Below are positions 7,593-64,000 of a stretch of DNA of 64,000 nt, piece by piece. The DNA is taken from positions 48,617 to 112,616 of the forward strand of contig CAZBWU010000001.1 in assembly GCA_964496095.1 (NCBI GenBank), written 5' to 3'. This DNA is from an uncultured Gammaproteobacteria bacterium. GTDB taxonomy: Bacteria > Patescibacteriota > Patescibacteriia > Magasanikbacterales > GWA2-37-8. The translations under genes were made by a program, and so were the position numbers. Numbering within the stretch: position 1 is the first letter of the stretch; every line of letters begins with the position of its first letter. Below the pieces are notes generated by a model. That model was given only the letters and a program-made list of their open reading frames with translations. It did not search any database and was not told the DNA's origin.

Positions 7593-7684
7593 GCTTATTA
7601 ATTATTTTAAATTTCTTAACTCCAAAAATTTGGGGTTAATTTTTATATTTTGTTTAAGATTAGCCAAAATAATTCAACTAACTA

Positions 7685-7713
7685 TTGACAAAACAGGTAA
7701 ATTGTGATATATT
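7685..7713 (+). promoter_or_regulatory. Near-consensus sigma70 promoter (TTGACA-N17-TATATT)
   Basis: TTGACA at 7685-7690, a 17-nt spacer and TATATT at 7708-7713. It sits directly upstream of the GC-rich island and its ORF. Confidence 0.55.
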
Positions 7714-7796
7714 TATCGGTCGTGCGAAGTGCAAAAGCGTACCCGAATGGGTTGCTAGCCTATCGTATTACACAACCTTTGTCGTAGGAGTTTCCA

Positions 7797-8111
7797 GTGA
7801 ACATTCGTCAGATTCTCGTTACGGTCGGGATGTTCTTTATTCTCGCTCTCGGCCTGGCCAGTCGCGTGGTGCTGGTCATCATCGTCGAAGGAAAACCGAT
7901 GATGACCAATCTGCAACAATCCCCGAGGGTCATCGAGCTGAGTTGGCCGTACCGCGTGGCGGTGACGTCCGTGGTGAACGCCAGTATCAGGTGCTGGGAT
8001 GTGGACGGTCATGTTGATTTGTTCCCCCCAGATGACTCGCTATGGGTAGTGCAGTGTTATTACTCATATGGGACGTCACGTTGTTGCCAGCGACGGAGAG
8101 ATGGGTTGTAG
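7797..8111 (+). CDS. Small Cys-rich protein with an N-terminal membrane/signal segment, encoded in a GC-rich island (putative horizontally acquired gene)
   Basis: GTG start is preceded by AGGAG at -12 to -8. A 104-codon ORF has strongly GC-biased third positions (ctg, gtg, atc, ccg, gcc) unlike the rest of the window. The N-terminus is hydrophobic (ILVTVGMFFILALGLASRVVLVIIV) and the C-terminal part carries 5 Cys. The same DNA could alternatively be a structured RNA. Confidence 0.4.
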   Translation: MNIRQILVTVGMFFILALGLASRVVLVIIVEGKPMMTNLQQSPRVIELSWPYRVAVTSVVNASIRCWDVDGHVDLFPPDDSLWVVQCYYSYGTSRCCQRRRDGL

Positions 8112-8195
8112 TTGTGCGGGGCTTTCGCGTCCCGCCCCCGTTCTATATACGTCATGAATTGGTGTTTAGAGAACGGGTTTTTAGTTTATATTTTT

Positions 8196-10486: not shown

Positions 10487-10648
10487 CTGTCATCCCGAGG
10501 GTTACGCCCGAGGGATCTCTGTCCCAACTGTCATTCCCGCCACAGCGGGAATCCAGACAATTTAATTGGACGCTGGATACCCGATCAGGTCGGGGATTAC
10601 AACGACGAACGAACTGGACAGAGATTCCTCCTTTGTCGTCGGAATGAC
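10487..10648. repeat. Cluster of short palindromic interspersed repeats (GTCATyC...GAATGAC family), at least 3 units in both orientations
   Basis: Units ctgtcatcccgagggttacgcccgagggatctctgtcc, ctgtcattcccgccacagcgggaatccagaca and an inverted unit ending ggaatgacaa. Related units recur at 33832, 37916, 59113 and 63484. Confidence 0.75.
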
Positions 10649-26659: not shown

Positions 26660-26715
26660 AAATTTAACTTAAATTATGTTATAAGGTTATCATTTTTAAG
26701 TATTCTTTGCAATTA

Positions 26716-26984
26716 AATTTAATCCACCTTTTGTAACCAAAAGCATATTAGTTAGACCCTTTCTTTAGAAGAAAGGGCAAAAAGAAGCGCGAGCTAGTAA
26801 AATTACTCGGAGCCAGACAGGACTTCTCCTCACTTCCGCCCTGAACTCGCCTGCGGTCTCAAACAGCAGGGCGGATTCTTTTGAAGAACCGCTCAGGTTC
26901 GTCTCTGTCTGCTACCTCCTAATTTCAAGGCTCGCACGGACAGTTCGGATAGACGAAAGTCGTCGTTGTCTGTGCGAGCCTTGG
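26716..26984 (-). ncRNA. Structured intergenic element, copy A (candidate 5' leader of gatB). It is listed on the strand of gatB.
   Basis: A palindromic hairpin cttttg-taac-caaaag is followed by a roughly 220-nt core. Copy B (51267-51487) has the same core. Stem regions differ by compensatory changes. Both copies sit about 70 nt upstream of gatB or proS and in the same sense as the gene. Confidence 0.4.
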
Positions 26985-27307
26985 AAAAACGAAGTTTAAA
27001 TTTAGAGATGAGTTTTAGTGTTCGCCCAGCCCGCTCTTGCGGGGCTGGGGAAATTTTCAATTGTTTGAGACAGCTTTTTATAGAAAAGCTGTTGAGTTTT
27101 GAAAATTAACTAAAATGAGGTCTAAATTTTCTGAGTTTTTCCATTGTGAGCGCTTCTTTCTTTTGCTTTCTTCTAAAGAAAGCAAAAAGTAATTTGATTT
27201 TTGTTTACAAAAGGTGAAATTTAGATTTCTTCTAAAGAAGTAGAAAAAAAGTTTATTTAAAAAAACCTCGATCAATGTCGAAGTTTTTTTGTGAAAGATT
27301 TAGAAAA

Positions 27308-47994: not shown

Positions 47995-48066
47995 CTCTGG
48001 GGGCTGGGATCGAACCAGCGAAATCCACGTTAACAGCGTGGCGTTGTACCACTCAACTACCCCAGA
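47995..48066 (-). tRNA. tRNA-Asn (anticodon GUU)
   Basis: Reverse complement gives TCTGGGGTAGTTGAGTGGTACAACGCCACGCTGTTAACGTGGATTTCGCTGGTTCGATCCCAGCCCCCAGAG. It has a 7-bp acceptor stem, a D arm, an anticodon stem with loop CUGUUAA, and a T arm GCTGG-TTCGATC-CCAGC. CCA is not encoded. Confidence 0.85.
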
Positions 48067-51047: not shown

Positions 51048-51490
51048 TTTAATCCACCTTTTGTAACCAAAAGCTGGAGGGAAAAGTTTCCGAGACAGAT
51101 GAAACAGATAAGATAGTTTGGGATTCGCCGTCACTCTGGTTGTGAACTCAACCACCTTTCTATAAAAGGTGGTCTCAAACAGCACAACCAGTCCCAGTAA
51201 GCCGTAAAAGCGGCTTACTGGCGACCGTTCCGTCTCATCTCCAAATTATAAACTTACTGTTTCATACGCTCGGACAGACAACCGCCGTTGTCCGTGCGAG
51301 CCTTGAAATTACGAGGCAAGCAGACAGAGACGAGCTGGAGCGGTTCTTCAAAAGAATCCGCCCTGCTGTTTGAGTCCGCCCGAGGCGGATGAGTTCAGGG
51401 CGGAAGTGAGGGTGAGGCCTGTCTGGCTCCGAGTAATTTCACTAGCTCGCGCTTCTTGTTTACTTCTTGTAAAGAAGTAAAGTAAGATGT
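51048..51490 (+). ncRNA. Structured intergenic element, copy B (candidate 5' leader of proS)
   Basis: Hairpin taatccacc-CTTTTG-taac-CAAAAG at 51050-51074. The core at 51267-51487 is homologous to the reverse complement of 26759-26984, with compensatory substitutions in stems. It ends about 65 nt before the proS start codon. Confidence 0.4.
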
Positions 51491-51551
51491 TTGCCAAGAA
51501 TAAAAACAAATGCTAGAATTGGTAAAGATTTTACTAATATATTAGGTTTAT

Positions 51552-57466: not shown

Positions 57467-58003
57467 CCGGGTGATAAAGGGTCTAGGGAAAAGCCACCAG
57501 CAGGAGATATTGTTATTGCGGACGCAGAATATGAACGTAGGGTAGCTGAGGTAAGGAGAAGTGATCCGCGCTTAGGCCTTTCTGGTCTAAGTGGTAAAAA
57601 AAGTCCAGACGCTCCCCAAGACAATCAACAAAAAGGTTTAAGAGTGGGTGATCAATTGCGTCCTAAGGCTTCTCCTGTTACTGAATCTCCTCGACCAGCT
57701 ACAAAACCAGCAAAGCCTAGTTATGGTACTGTAAAAGAGGCGCACATAGATTCTGGCAAACCTACCCAGGACTCCATAAAAGAAACTGAAAGAGGTAGAG
57801 TTAAAGAAGTTATAAGAACTTTTTTAGCTGATTTTATAGTTAGAATTAATTTTAAATTAGATTTTGCTGACAAAGATGGTCAGTATTTGTTAACTTTATA
57901 TCGTCAAGACAACACTGGCAAAGATAATCCAGAACCTTTTGAAGGAACTGAAAATGGTATTATGTATAAACTTCGTGCTTATATGGAAGCTGAAAAATTT
58001 TAG
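57467..58003 (+). CDS. Hypothetical Pro/Lys-rich protein
   Basis: The ORF from the internal ATG (MPGDKGSREKPPAG...) avoids overlap with tgt. Low-complexity N-terminal half. Confidence 0.3.
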   Translation, partial: PGDKGSREKPPAGDIVIADAEYERRVAEVRRSDPRLGLSGLSGKKSPDAPQDNQQKGLRVGDQLRPKASPVTESPRPATKPAKPSYGTVKEAHIDSGKPTQDSIKETERGRVKEVIRTFLADFIVRINFKLDFADKDGQYLLTLYRQDNTGKDNPEPFEGTENGIMYKLRAYMEAEKF

Positions 58004-58042
58004 AAGAAACCAATTGAATAACATTTATTTCCAATTTCATCT

Positions 58043-59101: not shown

Positions 59102-59112
59102 ATTGTTCGTAA

Positions 59113-59298
59113 CTGTCATTCTGAGTAAAGCGAAGAATCCCTGTCTGTACAATTGTCATTCCGACCGAAGTGGAGGAATCCCTTAAACAAGGTATTTGCA
59201 TGTACATAGTATAAGGGATCCCTCGACGGAGTTTATACCCTTTAGGGTGCTCGGGATGACAAACGGACAGAGATCCTTCATTTCATTCAGGATGACAA
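59113..59298. repeat. Cluster of short palindromic interspersed repeats filling the carA-carB spacer
   Basis: ctgtcattctgagtaaagcgaagaatccctgtctg, ttgtcattccgaccgaagtggaggaatccc, and inverted units (ggtgctcgggatgacaaacggacagagatcc, cattcaggatgacaac). Confidence 0.75.
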
Positions 59299-59311
59299 CA
59301 AGTGAATTTAT

Positions 59312-62300
59312 ATGATCAGAAACATCAAACCAAAAAAAGTATTGTTGCTCGGCTCGGGCGCTTTGCAAATTGGTCAAGCCGGTGAGTTTGATTATTCCGG
59401 CAGTCAGGCTATCAAAGCTCTCAAAGAAGATGGAATTTATACAGTTCTCATAAATCCAAATATTGCCACGATTCAAACCTCCGAACATTTGGCAGACAAA
59501 GTGTATTTTTTACCGCTCACGGTATATTTTGTCGAACAAATTATTGCCAAAGAAAATCCGGATGCGATTTTGCTTGGTTTTGGTGGGCAGACGGCGCTCA
59601 ACGTGGGTGTGCAGTTGCACGATTTGGGAATTTTAAAAAAATATAATATAGAAGTATTGGGTACACAGGTGGAGACAATCAAAGATACCGAAGACAGACA
59701 ATTGTTTGCCAATCGGGTCCATGAAGTCGGTCTCAAAACGGCTCGCAGTATTACGGCTGGTACGACCGAGGAAGCCTTGCAAGCGGGAAATAAAATCGGC
59801 TATCCGGTTATGTGTCGCGTGGCGTATGCGCTGGGAGGTCTGGGTTCGGGAGTAGTACAAAATGCCGAAGAGCTCAAAGAAAAAACTGATCGAGCCTTTG
59901 CTTTTACCAGCCAAGTGCTGATTGAAGAATGTTTGTATGGTTGGAAAGAAGTGGAATATGAAATCGTGCGCGACAAAAATGATAATTGTATTACTATTTG
60001 TTCCATGGAAAACTTTGACCCCATGGGTATTCATACGGGAGATAGTATTGTGGTCGCGCCAGTGCAAACACTTACCGCCAAAGAAAATTTTAATTTACGT
60101 GCTATTGGTATCAAGCTTATTCGGCATCTGGGAATAGTAGGTGAATGTAATATTCAATATGCCCTCGATCCGCAATCTGGTGATTATCGTATTATTGAAG
60201 TCAACGCTCGTCTTAGTCGTAGTTCGGCTTTGGCATCAAAAGCCACTGGCTATCCGCTCGCATTTGTCGCCACCAAATTGGCCTTGGGTTATGGTCTAAA
60301 TGAAGTGCAAAATATTATTACCAAAGAAACCTCGGCGTGTTTTGAGCCAGCGCTTGATTATATTACGCTCAAATTTCCTCGCTGGGACTTACAAAAATTT
60401 GAACATGTCAATAAAGTGTTGGGCACAGAGATGAAGTCTGTCGGTGAGGTAATGGCAATTGGTCGTAGTTTTGAAGAAGTTCTGCAAAAAGCAATTCGTA
60501 TGTTGGATATTGGGATGAAAGGGCTAGTGGGAAATAAAATTGAATTTGCTGATTTAGATAAAAGTATTTCCCAACCAACCGATAAAAGAATTTTTGCAAT
60601 TGTACAGGCAATGCAAGTGGGATATTCGGTAGACAGAGTTCATGATTTATCAAAAGTTGATCGCTGGTTTTTACATAAGTTAAAAAACATTATTGATCTT
60701 GAAATTGAGTTAAAAAAATTCACTTTAGAAAATTTATCAGTTGAAATTTTAAGAGAATCCAAGCAAGCCGGTTTTTCTGATTTACAAATTTCCAAAGCTA
60801 TTGGCACTAATCCGATAGAGGTAAGAAACAAGAGAAAATCTTTGGGAGTTGTGCCGGTAGTAAAACAAATTGATACCCTCGCCGCCGAATATCCTGCCAA
60901 AACAAATTATTTATATTTAACCTATAACGGCACAGAAAATGATGTGGTGCCGATAGATGAAAAAAAGGTGATAGTGCTCGGCAGTGGGCCGTACCGTATT
61001 GGATCATCAGTCGAGTTTGATTGGTGCTGTGTAAATTCACTCATGAGTTTGCAAAAAAATGGTTATAAGACAATTATGATAAATTGTAATCCTGAGACAG
61101 TCAGTACCGATTATGATGTGTCGGATCAATTATATTTTGAAGAGTTAAGTTTGGAAAAGATTTTGGATATTTATGAATTTCAAAAACCATTGGGAGTGGT
61201 CGTGTCTATGGGGGGCCAAGTGCCAAATAATTTAGCTTTGAAATTATATAATGAAGGCGTAAATATTTTGGGAACTTCGCCAACGCAGATTGATAATGCC
61301 GAGAGCAGGCAGAAATTCTCGCAAATTCTAGATGGTTTGGGAGTAGATCAGCCGGAGTGGAAAGAGTTAACCGATATGGCTTCGGCCAAAGAGTTTGCCG
61401 AGCGAGTTGGTTATCCGGTGCTTGTGCGTCCTAGCTATGTGCTTAGTGGGGCGGCGATGAGCGTGGTCTATAGTCCGGATGATTTGGAATTATTTTTACA
61501 AAAAGCGGTTGATATCAATCAAGAATATCCAGTAGTTATTAGTAAATTTATATCCAAAGCTAGAGAGATAGAACTCGATGCGGTGGCAAGTGGTGGCGAA
61601 TTATTTTGTTACGCTATCTCGGAACATTTAGAAAACGCGGGTGTACATTCGGGTGATGCCACTCTGGTTTTTCCAGCGCAAAAAACTTATTTAGAGACAT
61701 CTAGGCGCATCAAAAAAATTGCCAAAGAAGTAGCCAAGGCTTTGCAAATTACGGGGCCATTTAATATGCAACTGATTGCCAAAGATAATGATATTAAAGT
61801 CATTGAATGTAATCTGCGCGCGTCTCGCAGTTTTCCATTTGTTTCGAAAGTTTTGAAAATAAATTTTATAGATATTGCGACCAAGTTGATGATGGGTGAT
61901 GTGGTGCCAAAACTGGGTCATTCGGCTTTCGATTTGGATTATGTAGGTGTGAAGGTTTCGCAGTTTTCTTTTACCAGGTTAAAAGGTTCTGATCCGGTGA
62001 CAGGAGTAGAGATGGCATCTACTGGAGAAGTTGCATGCCTGGGCGATGATCTCAATGAAGCATTTTTGAAAAGTATAATTTCAGTTGGTTTTAGAATAGA
62101 ACCAAAATCAGTTTTATTGTCTATTGGATCTAATGATAAAAAAATCGCTTTCTTGGAAGAGGCTAGAGTCTTGCAGGAGATGGGAATAAAAATTTATGCT
62201 ACTCAAGGTACCGGTGTATTTTTGCAAGAAAATAAAATTGAGGCCGAAGTTTTGGAATGGACGGCGCAGGATGGTGTGCCTAGTGTGATGGCATATTTAT

Positions 62301-62506
62301 CAAGTAAAAAAATAGACTTAATGATAACTATTCCGAGTAATACAGAAAAAACTAGTTCCAGTAATGGCTATTTGGCCAGAAGAAAAGCGATTGACCAAAA
62401 TATTTCTTTGATTACAAACTTAGAGTTTGCTAGGCGGTATGTGAAGGCTATTTATAAGTATAAAATTAGTGATTTGAAGATTAAAAGTTGGGATGAGTAT
62501 TTATAG
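59312..62506 (+). CDS. carB: Carbamoyl-phosphate synthase large subunit
   Basis: 1064 aa with two ATP-grasp halves (KVLLLGSGALQIGQAGEFDYSG and KVIVLGSGPYRIGSSVEFDW) and a C-terminal MGS-like domain. Confidence 0.95.
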   Translation: MIRNIKPKKVLLLGSGALQIGQAGEFDYSGSQAIKALKEDGIYTVLINPNIATIQTSEHLADKVYFLPLTVYFVEQIIAKENPDAILLGFGGQTALNVGVQLHDLGILKKYNIEVLGTQVETIKDTEDRQLFANRVHEVGLKTARSITAGTTEEALQAGNKIGYPVMCRVAYALGGLGSGVVQNAEELKEKTDRAFAFTSQVLIEECLYGWKEVEYEIVRDKNDNCITICSMENFDPMGIHTGDSIVVAPVQTLTAKENFNLRAIGIKLIRHLGIVGECNIQYALDPQSGDYRIIEVNARLSRSSALASKATGYPLAFVATKLALGYGLNEVQNIITKETSACFEPALDYITLKFPRWDLQKFEHVNKVLGTEMKSVGEVMAIGRSFEEVLQKAIRMLDIGMKGLVGNKIEFADLDKSISQPTDKRIFAIVQAMQVGYSVDRVHDLSKVDRWFLHKLKNIIDLEIELKKFTLENLSVEILRESKQAGFSDLQISKAIGTNPIEVRNKRKSLGVVPVVKQIDTLAAEYPAKTNYLYLTYNGTENDVVPIDEKKVIVLGSGPYRIGSSVEFDWCCVNSLMSLQKNGYKTIMINCNPETVSTDYDVSDQLYFEELSLEKILDIYEFQKPLGVVVSMGGQVPNNLALKLYNEGVNILGTSPTQIDNAESRQKFSQILDGLGVDQPEWKELTDMASAKEFAERVGYPVLVRPSYVLSGAAMSVVYSPDDLELFLQKAVDINQEYPVVISKFISKAREIELDAVASGGELFCYAISEHLENAGVHSGDATLVFPAQKTYLETSRRIKKIAKEVAKALQITGPFNMQLIAKDNDIKVIECNLRASRSFPFVSKVLKINFIDIATKLMMGDVVPKLGHSAFDLDYVGVKVSQFSFTRLKGSDPVTGVEMASTGEVACLGDDLNEAFLKSIISVGFRIEPKSVLLSIGSNDKKIAFLEEARVLQEMGIKIYATQGTGVFLQENKIEAEVLEWTAQDGVPSVMAYLSSKKIDLMITIPSNTEKTSSSNGYLARRKAIDQNISLITNLEFARRYVKAIYKYKISDLKIKSWDEYL

Positions 62507-62657
62507 ATTTGACAGGTTTTTATTTTTTCGGTAAAGTAAAAATATTATGAAAAATATGCAAGCACAATCCAGATTTTTCTTTAGCTTTTACCGCTCGGTG
62601 AAGGCTATGTTTGCATCTGTGTAGAATTGAACTAAAAAATGCATTTCAAACAAAAGC

Positions 62658-62690
62658 CTTCGCCAAAAGCGGAGGTTTTTTGATTTTTGA
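62658..62690 (+). terminator. Rho-independent terminator downstream of carB
   Basis: CCTTCGC-caaaa-GCGGAGG (with one G-U pair) followed by TTTTTT. Confidence 0.55.
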
Positions 62691-62699
62691 AAATTAGAA

Positions 62700-63060
62700 A
62701 AAATTGTAAGGTTGTCGAGTGGTGTCCATGACACCTGGTCCCCAGGATATCGCGACGGTCGCGATGTTCGTGGATACCACTGGTAACTTTCTCGGTTGGG
62801 GGATCCCATGTTTATTCGGAATCCAAGGCTTGATATTGAAGAGACGGCAGCTGTACAGGCCACTCAACAGGATGGCGTCGGCCTTCTGTTGCCAAATGTG
62901 GCAAAGCCGCCTCCGGTTGAGGAGAGTATGCCGTCCTCCGAGCCCGGGCGCTGGCACGGGGTCGATCCGTTCGAGCTGAAGAAGTAGCCTTCTGGGTTTG
63001 TTGCCCTGAGGCAAGAATAGTAGTTCTTAGTAGTTGTTCTTTTTTCCGCCAACTCCGGGC
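62700..63060 (+). other. GC-rich, hairpin-dense island of unknown nature (structured RNA or a degraded foreign gene)
   Basis: Local GC is far above the surrounding roughly 35%. It has many perfect short hairpins (GGTGTC/GACACC, ATCGCGAC/GTCGCGAT, TTGCCA/TGGCAA, CTCC/GGAG) and no convincing long ORF. The longest + ORF is 63 aa (62796-62987). It is bounded by terminators at 62658-62690 and 63166-63200. Confidence 0.35.
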
Positions 63061-63165
63061 GGTATAAATATTCGGAGCAAGGAGTAGTCATGAAAATGAT
63101 TCGTGCGCCACACACGTCAAAGTGGCATCTCAATTTGTGTATAAGTTATTTTGTACACAAATAAG

Positions 63166-63200
63166 GCAAAAAACTGTTCGAACAATCGAACGGTTTTTTG
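63166..63200 (+). terminator. Rho-independent terminator closing the island 2 transcription unit
   Basis: AAAAAACTGTTCGAAC-aat-CGAACGG followed by TTTTTTG. Confidence 0.6.
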
Positions 63201-63254
63201 TTTCACTTATTTTTTGTATAAAAAATAATGATGTGATAATATGCTTGTTGCTAT

Positions 63255-64000
63255 ATGATTAATTTTCAATCAGAATTAAACCAAGAACAATTAGAACCAG
63301 TTTTGCACGGCGACGGGCCGTGTTTAGTTTTGGCTGGAGCTGGAAGCGGTAAGACAAGAGTTATTACCTATCGGGTGGCTTATTTGTTAGAGCAGGGAAT
63401 TAATCCGGAAAATATATTGTTAGTCACTTTTACCAACAAAGCTGCGGATGAAATGAAACGCAGAGTTGAGAAGTTGACGACACTGTCTGTCATTCCCGCT
63501 ACAGCGGGAATCCAGACAACCGTACACTGGATTCCCAATCAAGTTGGGAATGACAAAAGTGTAAAACTGCCTTGGGCAGGCACTTTTCATCATATCGCTT
63601 ATCGTATTTTACGAATTTATGCGCCGATTTTGGGCTACAAAAATAACTTTTCAGTACTAGATAGCGATGATAGTGAGACTATTTTGAAACTCTGTGCCAA
63701 GCCATTCAAATCAGATACTGGTCGGGTCAAGTTTCCTTCGGCGCGGGTTTTACAATCAATTATTAGTTTTGCGCGTAATTCAGAAACCACAATTGATAGC
63801 GTACTAGATCTCAAACATCCGCAATGGCAAATTTTTAGCGACAATATAAAAACGATTGCTCGTGAGTATGAACAAAAAAAGAAGGAAGCCAATGTGATGG
63901 ATTTTGATGATTTGTTGGTAAATTTTTTGTTGCTACTTAATCATGAACCAGCATTAAAAAAATATGCCGAGCAGTTCAAATATATTTTGGTAGACGAGTA
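63255..64000 (+). CDS. ATP-dependent DNA helicase, UvrD/PcrA/Rep family (N-terminal part; continues beyond the window)
   Basis: Helicase motifs: Walker A LVLAGAGSGKTRVITYRVAYL, Ia LLVTFTNKAADEM, then GTFH, and motif II ILVDEYQ at the window edge. The frame is open to position 64000. Confidence 0.9.
   Translation, partial: MINFQSELNQEQLEPVLHGDGPCLVLAGAGSGKTRVITYRVAYLLEQGINPENILLVTFTNKAADEMKRRVEKLTTLSVIPATAGIQTTVHWIPNQVGNDKSVKLPWAGTFHHIAYRILRIYAPILGYKNNFSVLDSDDSETILKLCAKPFKSDTGRVKFPSARVLQSIISFARNSETTIDSVLDLKHPQWQIFSDNIKTIAREYEQKKKEANVMDFDDLLVNFLLLLNHEPALKKYAEQFKYILVDE
63484..63556. repeat. Palindromic interspersed repeat unit inserted in-frame within the helicase CDS
   Basis: tgtctgtcattcccgctacagcgggaatccagacaa...gggaatgacaaa lies inside the open reading frame. 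It adds about 25 aa (SVIPATAGIQTTVHWIPNQVGNDKS) between helicase motif Ia and the GTFH motif without a stop or frameshift. Confidence 0.7.

Follow-up and report, generated by a model that had tools for sequence, protein, structure and literature searches.

The 748 bp that separate carB from the following helicase gene are best interpreted as filler DNA of acquired origin that contains terminators; they do not amount to a proven RNA gene. We put at roughly even odds (a probability of about 0.5) the reading that this segment is strain-specific cargo, most likely gained through horizontal transfer or illegitimate recombination at a junction between genes that is plastic in its candidate-phyla-radiation-like lineage, belonging to no known RNA or protein family and with no conserved product evident. 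Positions refer to the window, the whole 64-kb stretch of DNA that was analyzed. A preliminary description had presented the region as an isolated transcription unit, either a non-coding RNA gene or a decayed foreign gene with a small downstream peptide. What it observed was confirmed in part, and its interpretation is partly supported.

The strain-specific spacer (62507..63254, assigned to neither strand) runs from the stop codon of carB, which ends at 62506, to the ATG of a UvrD-type helicase gene at 63255 (Pfam PF00580, E 3e-55). Its limits are the points where homology to relatives stops. Alignments to the related loci L084/L085 (91% nucleotide identity), L086 (86%), L004, and L002 break at 62506-62510 and restart at 63252-63254, and these breakpoints coincide exactly with the carB stop and the helicase start. 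The spacer core (62700-63085) has a GC content of 53%, and 150-nt windows reach 63%, compared to a mean of 38.4% for the window. A GC-rich, hairpin-dense island between the two genes, as reported in the preliminary description, is therefore present (core 53-63% GC, 8 distinct hairpins). A blastn search found no similarity between the spacer and any other part of the 64-kb window, and the earlier statement that this island does not resemble a first one holds, since it matches nothing else there. The lineage has a small genome, lacks Shine-Dalgarno motifs, and avoids TGA.

The sole other copy of the spacer, L001 from Logan SRR10036081, is 100% identical. An assembly artefact is unlikely: the second assembly has the identical sequence, although it may share reads, and both flanks lie in the same conserved neighborhood. 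A repeat search at 62507 and 63254 found no terminal inverted repeats, flanking direct repeats, or target-site duplication.

The same junction is filled differently among relatives. In L002 (carB 81% and helicase 74% identical in amino acid sequence), the carB TAG is followed by 1 nt and then the helicase ATG. L084 and L085, which share 91% nucleotide identity across carA-carB, carry a 215-aa SAM-methyltransferase gene of 33% GC that fills exactly this slot and whose stop overlaps the helicase ATG. In GCA_964363685.1, where L086 is joined to L004, the slot holds a radical-SAM gene of 56-58% GC and a TrmB-type regulator. L005 has the order TGT, a 183-aa gene, and helicase, without carAB. The island is absent from close relatives in which the flanking genes are conserved, as expected of an islet insertion. 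The segment is discrete, compositionally foreign, and bracketed by terminators, and the comparison with close relatives shows that it is a true insertion. The searches turned up no donor, and a horizontal origin is suggested by composition and by absence in relatives.

The radical-SAM gene raises the question of whether the island is the remnant of a foreign GC-rich protein gene, for example an earlier cargo of this hot spot, that has decayed past recognition. A sister lineage does have a GC-rich gene in the same slot, and a 33-nt block of the island (62907-62939) is 79% identical, in the same orientation, to the GGGEP-motif region of that L086/L004 radical-SAM gene. The codon-position GC of a 63-codon frame in the island is also gene-like. 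However, the best tblastn match in a comparison of the two sequences, a 35-aa segment with an E-value of 0.29, is not in register with this block, nhmmer found nothing, and we rejected this homology as chance. The island also has no similarity to the L084 methyltransferase at the DNA, protein, or reduced-alphabet level.

Wider searches gave the same outcome. The 63-, 86-, 106-, and 89-aa ORFs of the island, concatenated as a protein-search query, matched none of 5.8 billion proteins at E<=10 and none of 1.84 billion representatives at E<=0.001, and hmmscan against Pfam, PHROG, and NCBIfam returned no match. Distant blastn of the island DNA against phages and plasmids was empty, exact 20-23-mers had no match among viral contigs, and no related loci were found with three reading frames in genome, metagenome, and viral collections. 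The test for a degraded gene that had been proposed in the preliminary description, by DNA search and by translated ORFs, thus came back negative, and the idea of a decayed known protein gene was not borne out. Decay past recognition of a foreign GC-rich protein gene seems distinctly improbable.

Both terminator-like hairpins noted earlier were recovered as intrinsic terminators. The first, T1 (62652..62690, plus strand), has a 12-bp stem (62652-62680) with 5 G-C pairs, followed by TTTTTTGATTTTTG as its T-tail. The second, T2 (63164-63203, plus strand), has a stem of 17-18 bp with an A-tract on one side and a T-tract on the other. Since its stem is flanked by both tracts, T2 may be able to act on both strands, and a minus-strand terminator-like site at 63191-63176 lies within it. 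Both have the G+C-containing stem and following T run of intrinsic (Rho-independent) terminators, T2 in a symmetric form with its A-tract upstream, although together they cover only about 80 of the 748 bases of the spacer. Terminator-like sites in the region number 5 compared to 1.0 ± 1.0 expected.

Promoter-like sites do not show such an excess. TTGACA-17-TAAAGT lies right after the carB stop (62509..62537, plus strand; 10/12 consensus matches) and TTCACT-16-AATAAT lies 26 nt 5' of the helicase ATG at 63255 (63202..63229, plus strand; 9/12 consensus matches), and both are putative promoters. Compared to shuffles these sites are not enriched (2 vs 2.7 ± 2.1 expected). Since the promoter-like sites are not enriched, it is on the terminators that the claim of an isolated transcription unit depends.

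The island is rich in short perfect hairpins. Perfect hairpins with stems of 5 bp or more number 8 when only distinct ones are counted, with about 2 expected. When nested versions are included the count is 12, compared to 2.0 ± 1.7 in 1000 dinucleotide shuffles, none of which reached 12. Only four hairpin-dense spots occur in the 64 kb, the island among them. The earlier wording that the island is packed with hairpins fits this excess (12 vs 2.0), but there is no single large fold, and the GC-rich middle of about 270 nt folds like shuffles (z -0.9 for 62791-62990; z -0.7 for 62976-63090). Four short perfect hairpins line the 3' edge of the GC-rich core on the plus strand (62980-62993, 63001-63014, 63013-63028, and 63046-63062), and the stretch as a whole, 62980..63062, is no more stable than shuffles (z -0.66). 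Folding better than shuffles is confined to 62704-62794 (z -6.2), 63086-63235 (z -6.8), and 62541-62690 (z -3.6). The last of these is an AT-rich hairpin unit before T1 (z -3.55). The second contains an AT-rich cluster of three tandem plus-strand hairpins including T2 (63133..63231), and it folds more strongly on the plus strand (z -6.76) than on the minus strand (z -4.46).

The first of these segments, at 62704..62794 on the plus strand, is predicted to fold into an 85-nt Y-shaped three-way junction. It has a 22-bp basal stem with G.U pairs and is capped by the hairpins CCUGG-UCC-CCAGG and AUAUCGCGA-CGG-UCGCGAUGU. Its minimum free energy (MFE) structure, at -46.0 kcal/mol, equals the centroid (z -6.21), and 0/200 shuffles were equally stable. 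The minus strand reaches a z of only -2.41; this strand asymmetry is due to the G.U pairs, and it is kept with DNA parameters. Further copies of the junction were sought with a covariance model in the 64-kb window, there with filters off, and in 87 loci, and none were found. Its predicted stability is too high for mere noise. Together with the excess of perfect hairpins, which filler DNA does not explain, the junction hints at selection for structure or at a mechanism that generates hairpins.

A rival reading is a novel, lineage-restricted structured RNA gene. Such an RNA would comprise the Y junction, with or without the GC-rich body, on the plus strand. Its transcription would begin either at an unrecognised promoter or at the promoter-like site at 62509, in the latter case passing through T1, and would stop at T2. 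Structured RNAs are classically sought in long intergenic regions that are GC-rich while the genome is AT-rich, as is the case for the 748-bp spacer (PMC6429828, PMC11109978). The island as a whole is more stable on the plus strand (-152.7 kcal/mol, z -3.75) than on the minus strand (-127.7 kcal/mol), the segment at 62704-62794 is strand-asymmetric with coinciding MFE and centroid structures, and a clean terminator lies downstream. The island thus resembles the candidates found by screening GC-rich intergenic regions (GC-IGRs), which are also long, GC-rich, set in an AT-rich genome, and predicted to be strongly structured on one strand. However, the Breaker-lab GC-IGR approach requires several representatives and covariation before it accepts a candidate (PMC6429828), whereas the island is a single sequence and would be labeled "unnamed: insufficient evidence" under that scheme. 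The only other copy, L001, is identical, and the searches found no diverged homolog, so there is no conservation or covariation to draw on.

Further points also count against an RNA gene. A strong terminator stands directly 5' of the structure, no consensus promoter lies between T1 and the three-way junction, the middle of about 270 nt has no structure beyond that of shuffles, and the island is missing from a 91%-identical relative. A gathering-threshold scan of the whole window with Rfam 15 matched only a tRNA-Asn at 47995-48066. At E<=10 over 62400-63300, nothing matched the GC-rich core, and sub-threshold matches were limited to the terminators and AT-rich flanks, with FuFi-1 scoring highest at 23.9 bits against a threshold of 59.6 bits. 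ARAGORN found no tRNA or tmRNA in the island. The Rfam scan advised earlier thus places no family in the island, and without a homolog or its own promoter after T1 the proposed RNA gene is not supported. By the preliminary description's own standard, under which lack of conservation would mean compositional noise, the RNA reading fails for now, yet the 85-nt junction appears too stable to be noise. We regard a structured RNA gene as unlikely.

Coding capacity was also considered. The preliminary description stated that no long ORF spans the island, but a 106-aa ORF on the minus strand (62694..63014) and an 86-aa ORF on the plus strand (62719-62979) cover most of the core. These lengths are within chance, as 14% of shuffles reach the length of the longest open frame, and 14% that of the longest ATG ORF (P=0.14). 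The 106-codon ORF is the codon-aligned antisense frame of a plus-strand ORF in the GC-rich middle, which has 59 codons from its ATG (62808..62987) or 63 codons from a TTG at 62796, and it is a composition artefact. The 59/63-codon frame has a GC content by codon position of 0.67/0.42/0.63 and is unsupported as a gene. AlphaFold2 gave the 59-aa product a pLDDT of 64 and a pTM of 0.14 without secondary structure, and it is predicted to be disordered. A 25-codon plus-strand ORF (MKNMQAQSRFFFSFYRSVKAMFASV), read from the sequence at 62547..62624, lies inside the AT-rich hairpin unit, would be nearly leaderless relative to the promoter-like site at 62509..62537, and has no match in PHROG or NCBIfam. 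We also tried TGA read-through, which would open a 167-codon minus-strand ORF (62588-63091), and rejected it: real genes here have no in-frame TGA, and the GC pattern of this frame is non-coding.

The small ORF reported downstream is present as quoted. AAGGAG (63079-63084) precedes the ATG of a 24-codon plus-strand ORF (MKMIRAPHTSKWHLNLCISYFVHK; 63090-63164, with the motif 63079..63164), although the spacer is 5 nt and not 6. Searches of Pfam, PHROG, and NCBIfam found no family match for it. This ORF and the 59-aa ORF could be genuine small-protein genes, one or both, with their own Shine-Dalgarno sequences in a moron-like cassette. Besides AAGGAG-N5-ATG, there is GGGGGA-N4-ATG before the 59-aa ORF, the 59-aa frame has its codon-position GC pattern and coincides with the part of the island without unusual structure, and T2 follows right after the stop of the 24-aa ORF. 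On the other hand, AGGA, GGAG, or GAGG occurs upstream of 0/52 long native ORFs, whose upstream regions are A/T-rich, and composition gives 22 AAGGAG in the 64-kb window. For these two reasons the island AAGGAG is not evidence of translation, and it is probably either foreign-style or due to chance; the small downstream peptide proposed earlier loses its footing on the same counts. The ORF lengths match shuffles, neither ORF has a homolog or family match, the 59-aa ORF has no predicted fold, and the gene callers of two assemblies, including the identical L001, called 0 genes in the island. Genuine small-protein genes are therefore highly improbable.

Other structured or GC-rich segments occur in the window. 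A 340-nt GC-rich structured element is present twice with 76% identity (26761-27098 and 51145-51476), and at least its gatB copy is absent from the relative L089. The helicase gene itself contains a 72-nt in-frame block with three perfect hairpins that is missing in relatives, and the carA-carB spacer is filled with palindromic repeats. GC-rich strain-specific segments also replace or add to the content of relatives between RuvC and a 199-aa gene, upstream of gatB, and upstream of ProRS. For the paired islands, TnpB/omega-RNA was rejected since the flanking genes are gatB, ProRS, and DUF4349 and not transposases, and a T-box leader was rejected as well; the pair is not a set of conserved leaders because it is absent from relatives. 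A further island at 7593-8195 is 603 nt long, and a relative has 602 nt there. This near-equal length prompted the idea of a hypermutated version of the relative's gene, which was rejected after purine/pyrimidine, keto/amino, and strong/weak recoding gave no alignment near offset 0.

These segments bear on whether the carB-helicase island is a non-autonomous mobile or repeated palindromic element (MITE-, PATE-, or REP-like) that inserted at the junction and has more copies elsewhere in the genome. The strain carries the 76%-identical pair, the helicase block, and the carA-carB repeats, and the island is equally hairpin-dense and strain-specific. Its dense, short, perfect intergenic hairpins recall REP/BIME, MITE, and Rickettsia-palindromic-element-like insertions, of which the in-frame helicase insertion and the GC-rich pair are clear examples in the same genome. 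In the island, by contrast, the hairpins all differ and show no relationship with one another or with the ATTCCC/GGGAAT family. No second copy was found by blastn or covariance model in the 64-kb window, which is part of a 457-kb contig, nor in 845 kb of related loci, and neither terminal inverted repeats nor a target-site duplication were seen. A repeated palindromic element is improbable. A broader proposal, that the island, the 76%-identical pair, and 7593-8195 are examples of a so far unrecognised type of DNA, non-coding and rich in structure, that colonises gene junctions, with the 85-nt Y hairpin as a functional RNA or single-stranded DNA module for mobility or RNA-level regulation, is doubtful.

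The strain-specific cargo that we favor is closest to flexible islets and phage-style morons, in which extra DNA of deviating composition, with its own promoter and terminator, separates two genes that lie side by side in relatives. The island likewise falls exactly between two genes that directly adjoin each other in a relative, differs in GC by 15-25 points, and has terminators on its flanks and a promoter-like site at its start, and sister lineages have alternative cargo in the slot. It differs from morons and islets in that it has no demonstrable gene, is chromosomal and not in a prophage, and has promoter-like sites at chance level only.

Under this reading of the segment as acquired cargo, its anatomy can be outlined. 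A putative promoter leads into about 140 nt of AT-rich hairpin DNA closed by T1. Next come the very stable Y-shaped hairpin of 85 nt, on the plus strand, and about 270 nt of GC-rich DNA with structure and ORFs at chance level. The AT-rich three-hairpin cluster with the symmetric T2 and the putative promoter before the helicase complete the segment. Any RNA made from the island would be strain-specific. One candidate is an RNA of about 135 nt running from the first promoter-like site to T1, and the other is a T1 read-through transcript carrying the Y-shaped hairpin.

In relatives the helicase is likely read within the carAB operon, because its start codon directly adjoins the preceding gene or overlaps it. 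Here, the two terminators would stop carAB transcription and the helicase would have to use its own promoter, so the insert may act chiefly as a transcriptional insulator. As judged from these sequence features, uncoupling of the helicase from carAB transcription is the one effect that we can infer for the island.

If the favored explanation is right, the finding is an ordinary one, another case of a plastic gene junction that holds strain-specific cargo. The segment would mainly be useful for marking genome flux in an uncultured bacterium with a reduced genome, and it would illustrate how an insertion can split a carAB-helicase operon and force a new promoter. It also urges caution, as GC-rich islands, "perfect" ribosome-binding sites, and ORFs of 60-110 codons are not evidence of genes here. 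If the Y-shaped hairpin or the recurrent GC-rich insertions instead belong to a class of mobile or regulatory RNA, they would offer a handle on how minimal genomes take up and tolerate foreign DNA.

The carB gene (product of 1064 aa) ends at 62506 and the gene for a UvrD-type helicase (Pfam PF00580, E 3e-55) starts at 63255, leaving a spacer of 748 bp. Its core, 62700-63085, has 53% GC with 150-nt windows of up to 63%; the window as a whole has 38.4%. The core contains 8 distinct perfect hairpins with stems of at least 5 bp, or 12 if nested versions are counted, against an expected 2.0 ± 1.7 from 1000 dinucleotide-preserving shuffles, none of which reached 12. Such a density of G+C-containing hairpins occurs at only four places in the whole window. 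The spacer also holds two sites that fit the definition of an intrinsic terminator, at 62652-62680 plus a T-tail and at 63164-63203, both about where the preliminary description had placed them. Terminator-like sites number 5 in 62300-63400 against 1.0 ± 1.0 expected, and promoter-like sites, at 62509-62537 and 63202-63229, are not enriched (2 versus 2.7 expected).

We compared this junction with loci carrying relatives of the flanking genes. In L002 (carB 81% and helicase 74% identical in amino acids), the carB TAG is followed by one base and then the helicase ATG. In L084/L085, a relative with 91% DNA identity over carA-carB, exactly the same slot holds an AT-rich gene (33% GC) for a 215-aa SAM-methyltransferase, whose stop overlaps the helicase ATG. 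In GCA_964363685.1, where contigs L086 (at its end) and L004 (at its start) overlap, the order is carB, a radical-SAM gene (56-58% GC, opposite strand), a TrmB-type regulator, and helicase. L005 lacks carAB entirely and has TGT, then a gene for 183 aa, then the helicase. Homology with all of these ends at 62506-62510 and restarts at 63252-63254. Judged from these alignments, the differing contents and the breakpoints at gene ends indicate that the carB-helicase junction is a hot spot of plasticity and that the 748 bp are strain-specific cargo; the island can be classed as a strain-specific insertion.

The sole other copy of the island is in Logan SRR10036081, at 100% identity. No DNA relative was found by blastn against phages and plasmids, by three-frame degenerate-pattern scans of genome, metagenome, and viral contigs, by exact-word scans of viral contigs, by blastn and nhmmer on the fetched loci, or by blastn alone on the enlarged set (845 kb). 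It is quite unlikely that the island is a multi-copy non-autonomous element with further copies beyond the window. Nor does the island resemble the cargo of its relatives. The methyltransferase shows no similarity to it, and the only matches to the radical-SAM gene are a 33-nt block (79% identical) and a tblastn segment of 35 aa (E 0.29) in differing registers. In view of these registers and of the empty nhmmer result for this pair, a remnant of radical-SAM cargo was rejected and the two short segments were attributed to chance. A hypermutated copy was likewise rejected, as purine/pyrimidine, keto/amino, and strong/weak recoding gave no alignment. We put the chance at roughly one in two that the spacer represents strain-specific cargo acquired from a donor that was not found, and that it has no conserved product. 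The closest known kind is the flexible genomic islet or phage-style "moron", which likewise consists of additional, compositionally deviating DNA lodged between genes that are neighbours in relatives and has its own terminators; however, no gene is demonstrable in the island.

The preliminary description had suggested a non-coding RNA gene or a decayed foreign gene with a small downstream peptide. For a known RNA family, this was not borne out: with Rfam 15 at gathering thresholds, the sole match in the whole window is a tRNA-Asn outside the island, matches within 62400-63300 are sub-threshold and confined to the AT-rich flanks and terminators, and ARAGORN returned no match. A decayed foreign gene is very unlikely. 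With the four island ORFs joined into a single query, a search of 5.8 billion proteins gave no match at E<=10 and one of 1.84 billion cluster representatives gave none at E<=0.001; Pfam, PHROG, and NCBIfam were all negative. The query also lacked a self-match, which another ORF of the same genome did return in a later search. The island therefore has no called gene in the source annotations, in agreement with the annotation of the identical copy, where nothing is called from carB to the helicase.

Real small proteins are highly improbable. Contrary to the earlier statement that no long ORF spans the island, a 106-codon ORF (62694-63014, minus strand) and an 86-codon ORF (plus strand) cover most of the core; ORFs of this size were attained in 14% of shuffles. 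The 106-codon ORF was rejected as a gene, being the codon-aligned antisense frame of a 59/63-codon ORF and so an artefact of composition. The 59-codon ORF (62808-62987) has gene-like GC by codon position (0.67/0.42/0.63), a measure biased by the choice of an open frame; its AlphaFold2 prediction lacks secondary structure (pLDDT 64, pTM 0.14). The 24-codon ORF at 63090-63164 exists exactly as quoted, with a spacing of 5 nt rather than 6 between AAGGAG and ATG. None of the 52 long native ORFs in the window (at least 150 codons) has AGGA, GGAG, or GAGG upstream, their upstream regions are A/T-rich, and the organism evidently manages without relying on Shine-Dalgarno pairing. Since AAGGAG also occurs 22 times in the window, the supposedly perfect ribosome-binding site is foreign-style or chance and does not serve as evidence of translation. 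The island belongs to no Rfam family and is not a recognisable pseudogene, a supported small-protein gene, or a repeat element with terminal repeats.

The same 52 ORFs end in TAA (44) or TAG (8) and never in TGA, and no in-frame TGA occurs in real genes of the window; TGA apparently goes unused, serving neither as a stop nor in any evident way as a sense codon. Gracilibacteria include lineages that read UGA as glycine, and one ProRS relative at 90% identity carries the label Candidatus Gracilibacteria. L004-L006 and L086 are labelled Gammaproteobacteria, probably a mis-assignment; their gene content, genome style, and next relatives (labelled Magasanikiibacteriota and Gracilibacteria) point to the candidate phyla radiation.

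The whole island folds at -152.7 kcal/mol on the plus strand (z -3.75 against shuffles) and -127.7 kcal/mol on the minus strand (z -3.26). Sliding windows and sub-folds showed this signal to be local. On the plus strand, a Y-shaped three-way junction at 62704-62794 reaches -46.0 kcal/mol (z -6.2), with identical MFE and centroid structures and a basal stem of 22 bp; its minus-strand z is only -2.4 because of G.U pairs. Three tandem AT-rich hairpins at 63086-63235, including the second terminator, have z -6.8 (plus) and -4.5 (minus), and an AT-rich unit at 62541-62690, with the first terminator at its end, has z -3.6 (plus). The GC-rich middle resembles shuffles on the plus strand (z -0.9 at 62791-62990, z -0.7 at 62976-63090). 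The 350 bp described as packed with hairpins therefore reduce to one strong 85-nt structure and scattered short palindromes, with no single large fold. The strand-specific z of the junction and the precedent of RNA discovery in GC-rich intergenic regions (PMC6429828) would fit a genuine orphan structured RNA, a reading we consider possible though unlikely. However, a covariance model of the junction found no further copy on all fetched loci (845 kb), and that scheme classes a candidate known from one representative as "unnamed: insufficient evidence" (PMC6429828).

Other insertions of this style occur in the window, none resembling the island in sequence. The intergenic island 7593-8195 (GC up to 61%) takes the place of a HAD-hydrolase gene in the 91% relative, at 603 versus 602 nt and without sequence similarity. 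It carries a promoter close to consensus (TTGACA-17-TATATT, about 7686-7714), and AGGAG-N6-GTG opens a 104-codon ORF (7797-8111) with a hydrophobic N-terminal segment and no homolog in any library searched. Relative L089, which is 88% identical in the flanks, lacks island 26710-27251 upstream of gatB; at 51048-51551, upstream of ProRS, a 151-aa gene fills the spacer in another relative. These two islands share a GC-rich, strongly structured element of ~340 nt (26761-27098, minus; 51145-51476, plus; 76% identical), each copy upstream of and oriented as its translation gene, with the identical 27-mer TTTAATCCACCTTTTGTAACCAAAAGC adjoining both (26718 and 51048). The pair has a common predicted fold (RNAalifold -88.9 kcal/mol, 7 compensatory pairs) and no Rfam match. 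Given what the relatives carry at both places, it looks like a repeated, perhaps mobile, element specific to this strain, and not like a conserved leader.

Inside the helicase gene itself, at 63473-63567, is a 72-nt (24-codon) in-frame insertion of three perfect hairpins (ATTCCCGC-TACA-GCGGGAAT; GGGAATCCAG..CTGGATTCCC; ATTCCCAA-TCAA-GTTGGGAAT). It is absent from L084, L004, and L002, and both strands fold at z -5 to -6.6. At 10533-10552 there is a related hairpin, ATTCCCGCCACAGCGGGAAT. The insertion looks like a palindromic element with in-frame integration, a behaviour shared with Rickettsia palindromic elements. The 210-bp carA-carB spacer (59102-59311) is filled with GTCATTC..GAATCCC-type palindromic repeat units; it is also 210 bp in L084, with a continuous blastn alignment, and 20 bp only in the more distant L003. 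The TGT-carA segment (57491-58040) is also strain-specific, with a 207-codon ORFan whose sole database match is this genome itself; the same place holds a 251-aa gene in L084 and an IgGFc-binding-domain gene plus a 192-aa gene in L086/L087. Beyond 81% identity, the nearest carB homologs are at about 68%, some named Ignavibacteria or Thermoplasmata. With this drop and the lack of carAB in L005, carAB itself may be acquired cargo.

Strain-specific GC-rich and/or hairpin-rich insertions thus recur in this genome, the carB-helicase island being one that is unrelated in sequence to the others. It is rather doubtful that these GC-rich structured insertions constitute a class of non-coding elements in the lineage that has so far gone unrecognised. 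If the insert is expressed, candidate products would be an RNA of ~135 nt that begins at the promoter-like site 62509-62537, ends at the first terminator and includes a near-leaderless 25-codon ORF, and a read-through RNA with the Y-shaped hairpin. The preceding gene ends next to the helicase start in L002 and overlaps it in L084, an arrangement that implies transcription of the helicase together with carAB. In this strain, two intrinsic terminators separate carB from the helicase, the second of which could act on both strands, and a promoter-like site at 63202-63229 lies ahead of the helicase; the insert should therefore detach helicase transcription from that of the carAB operon.
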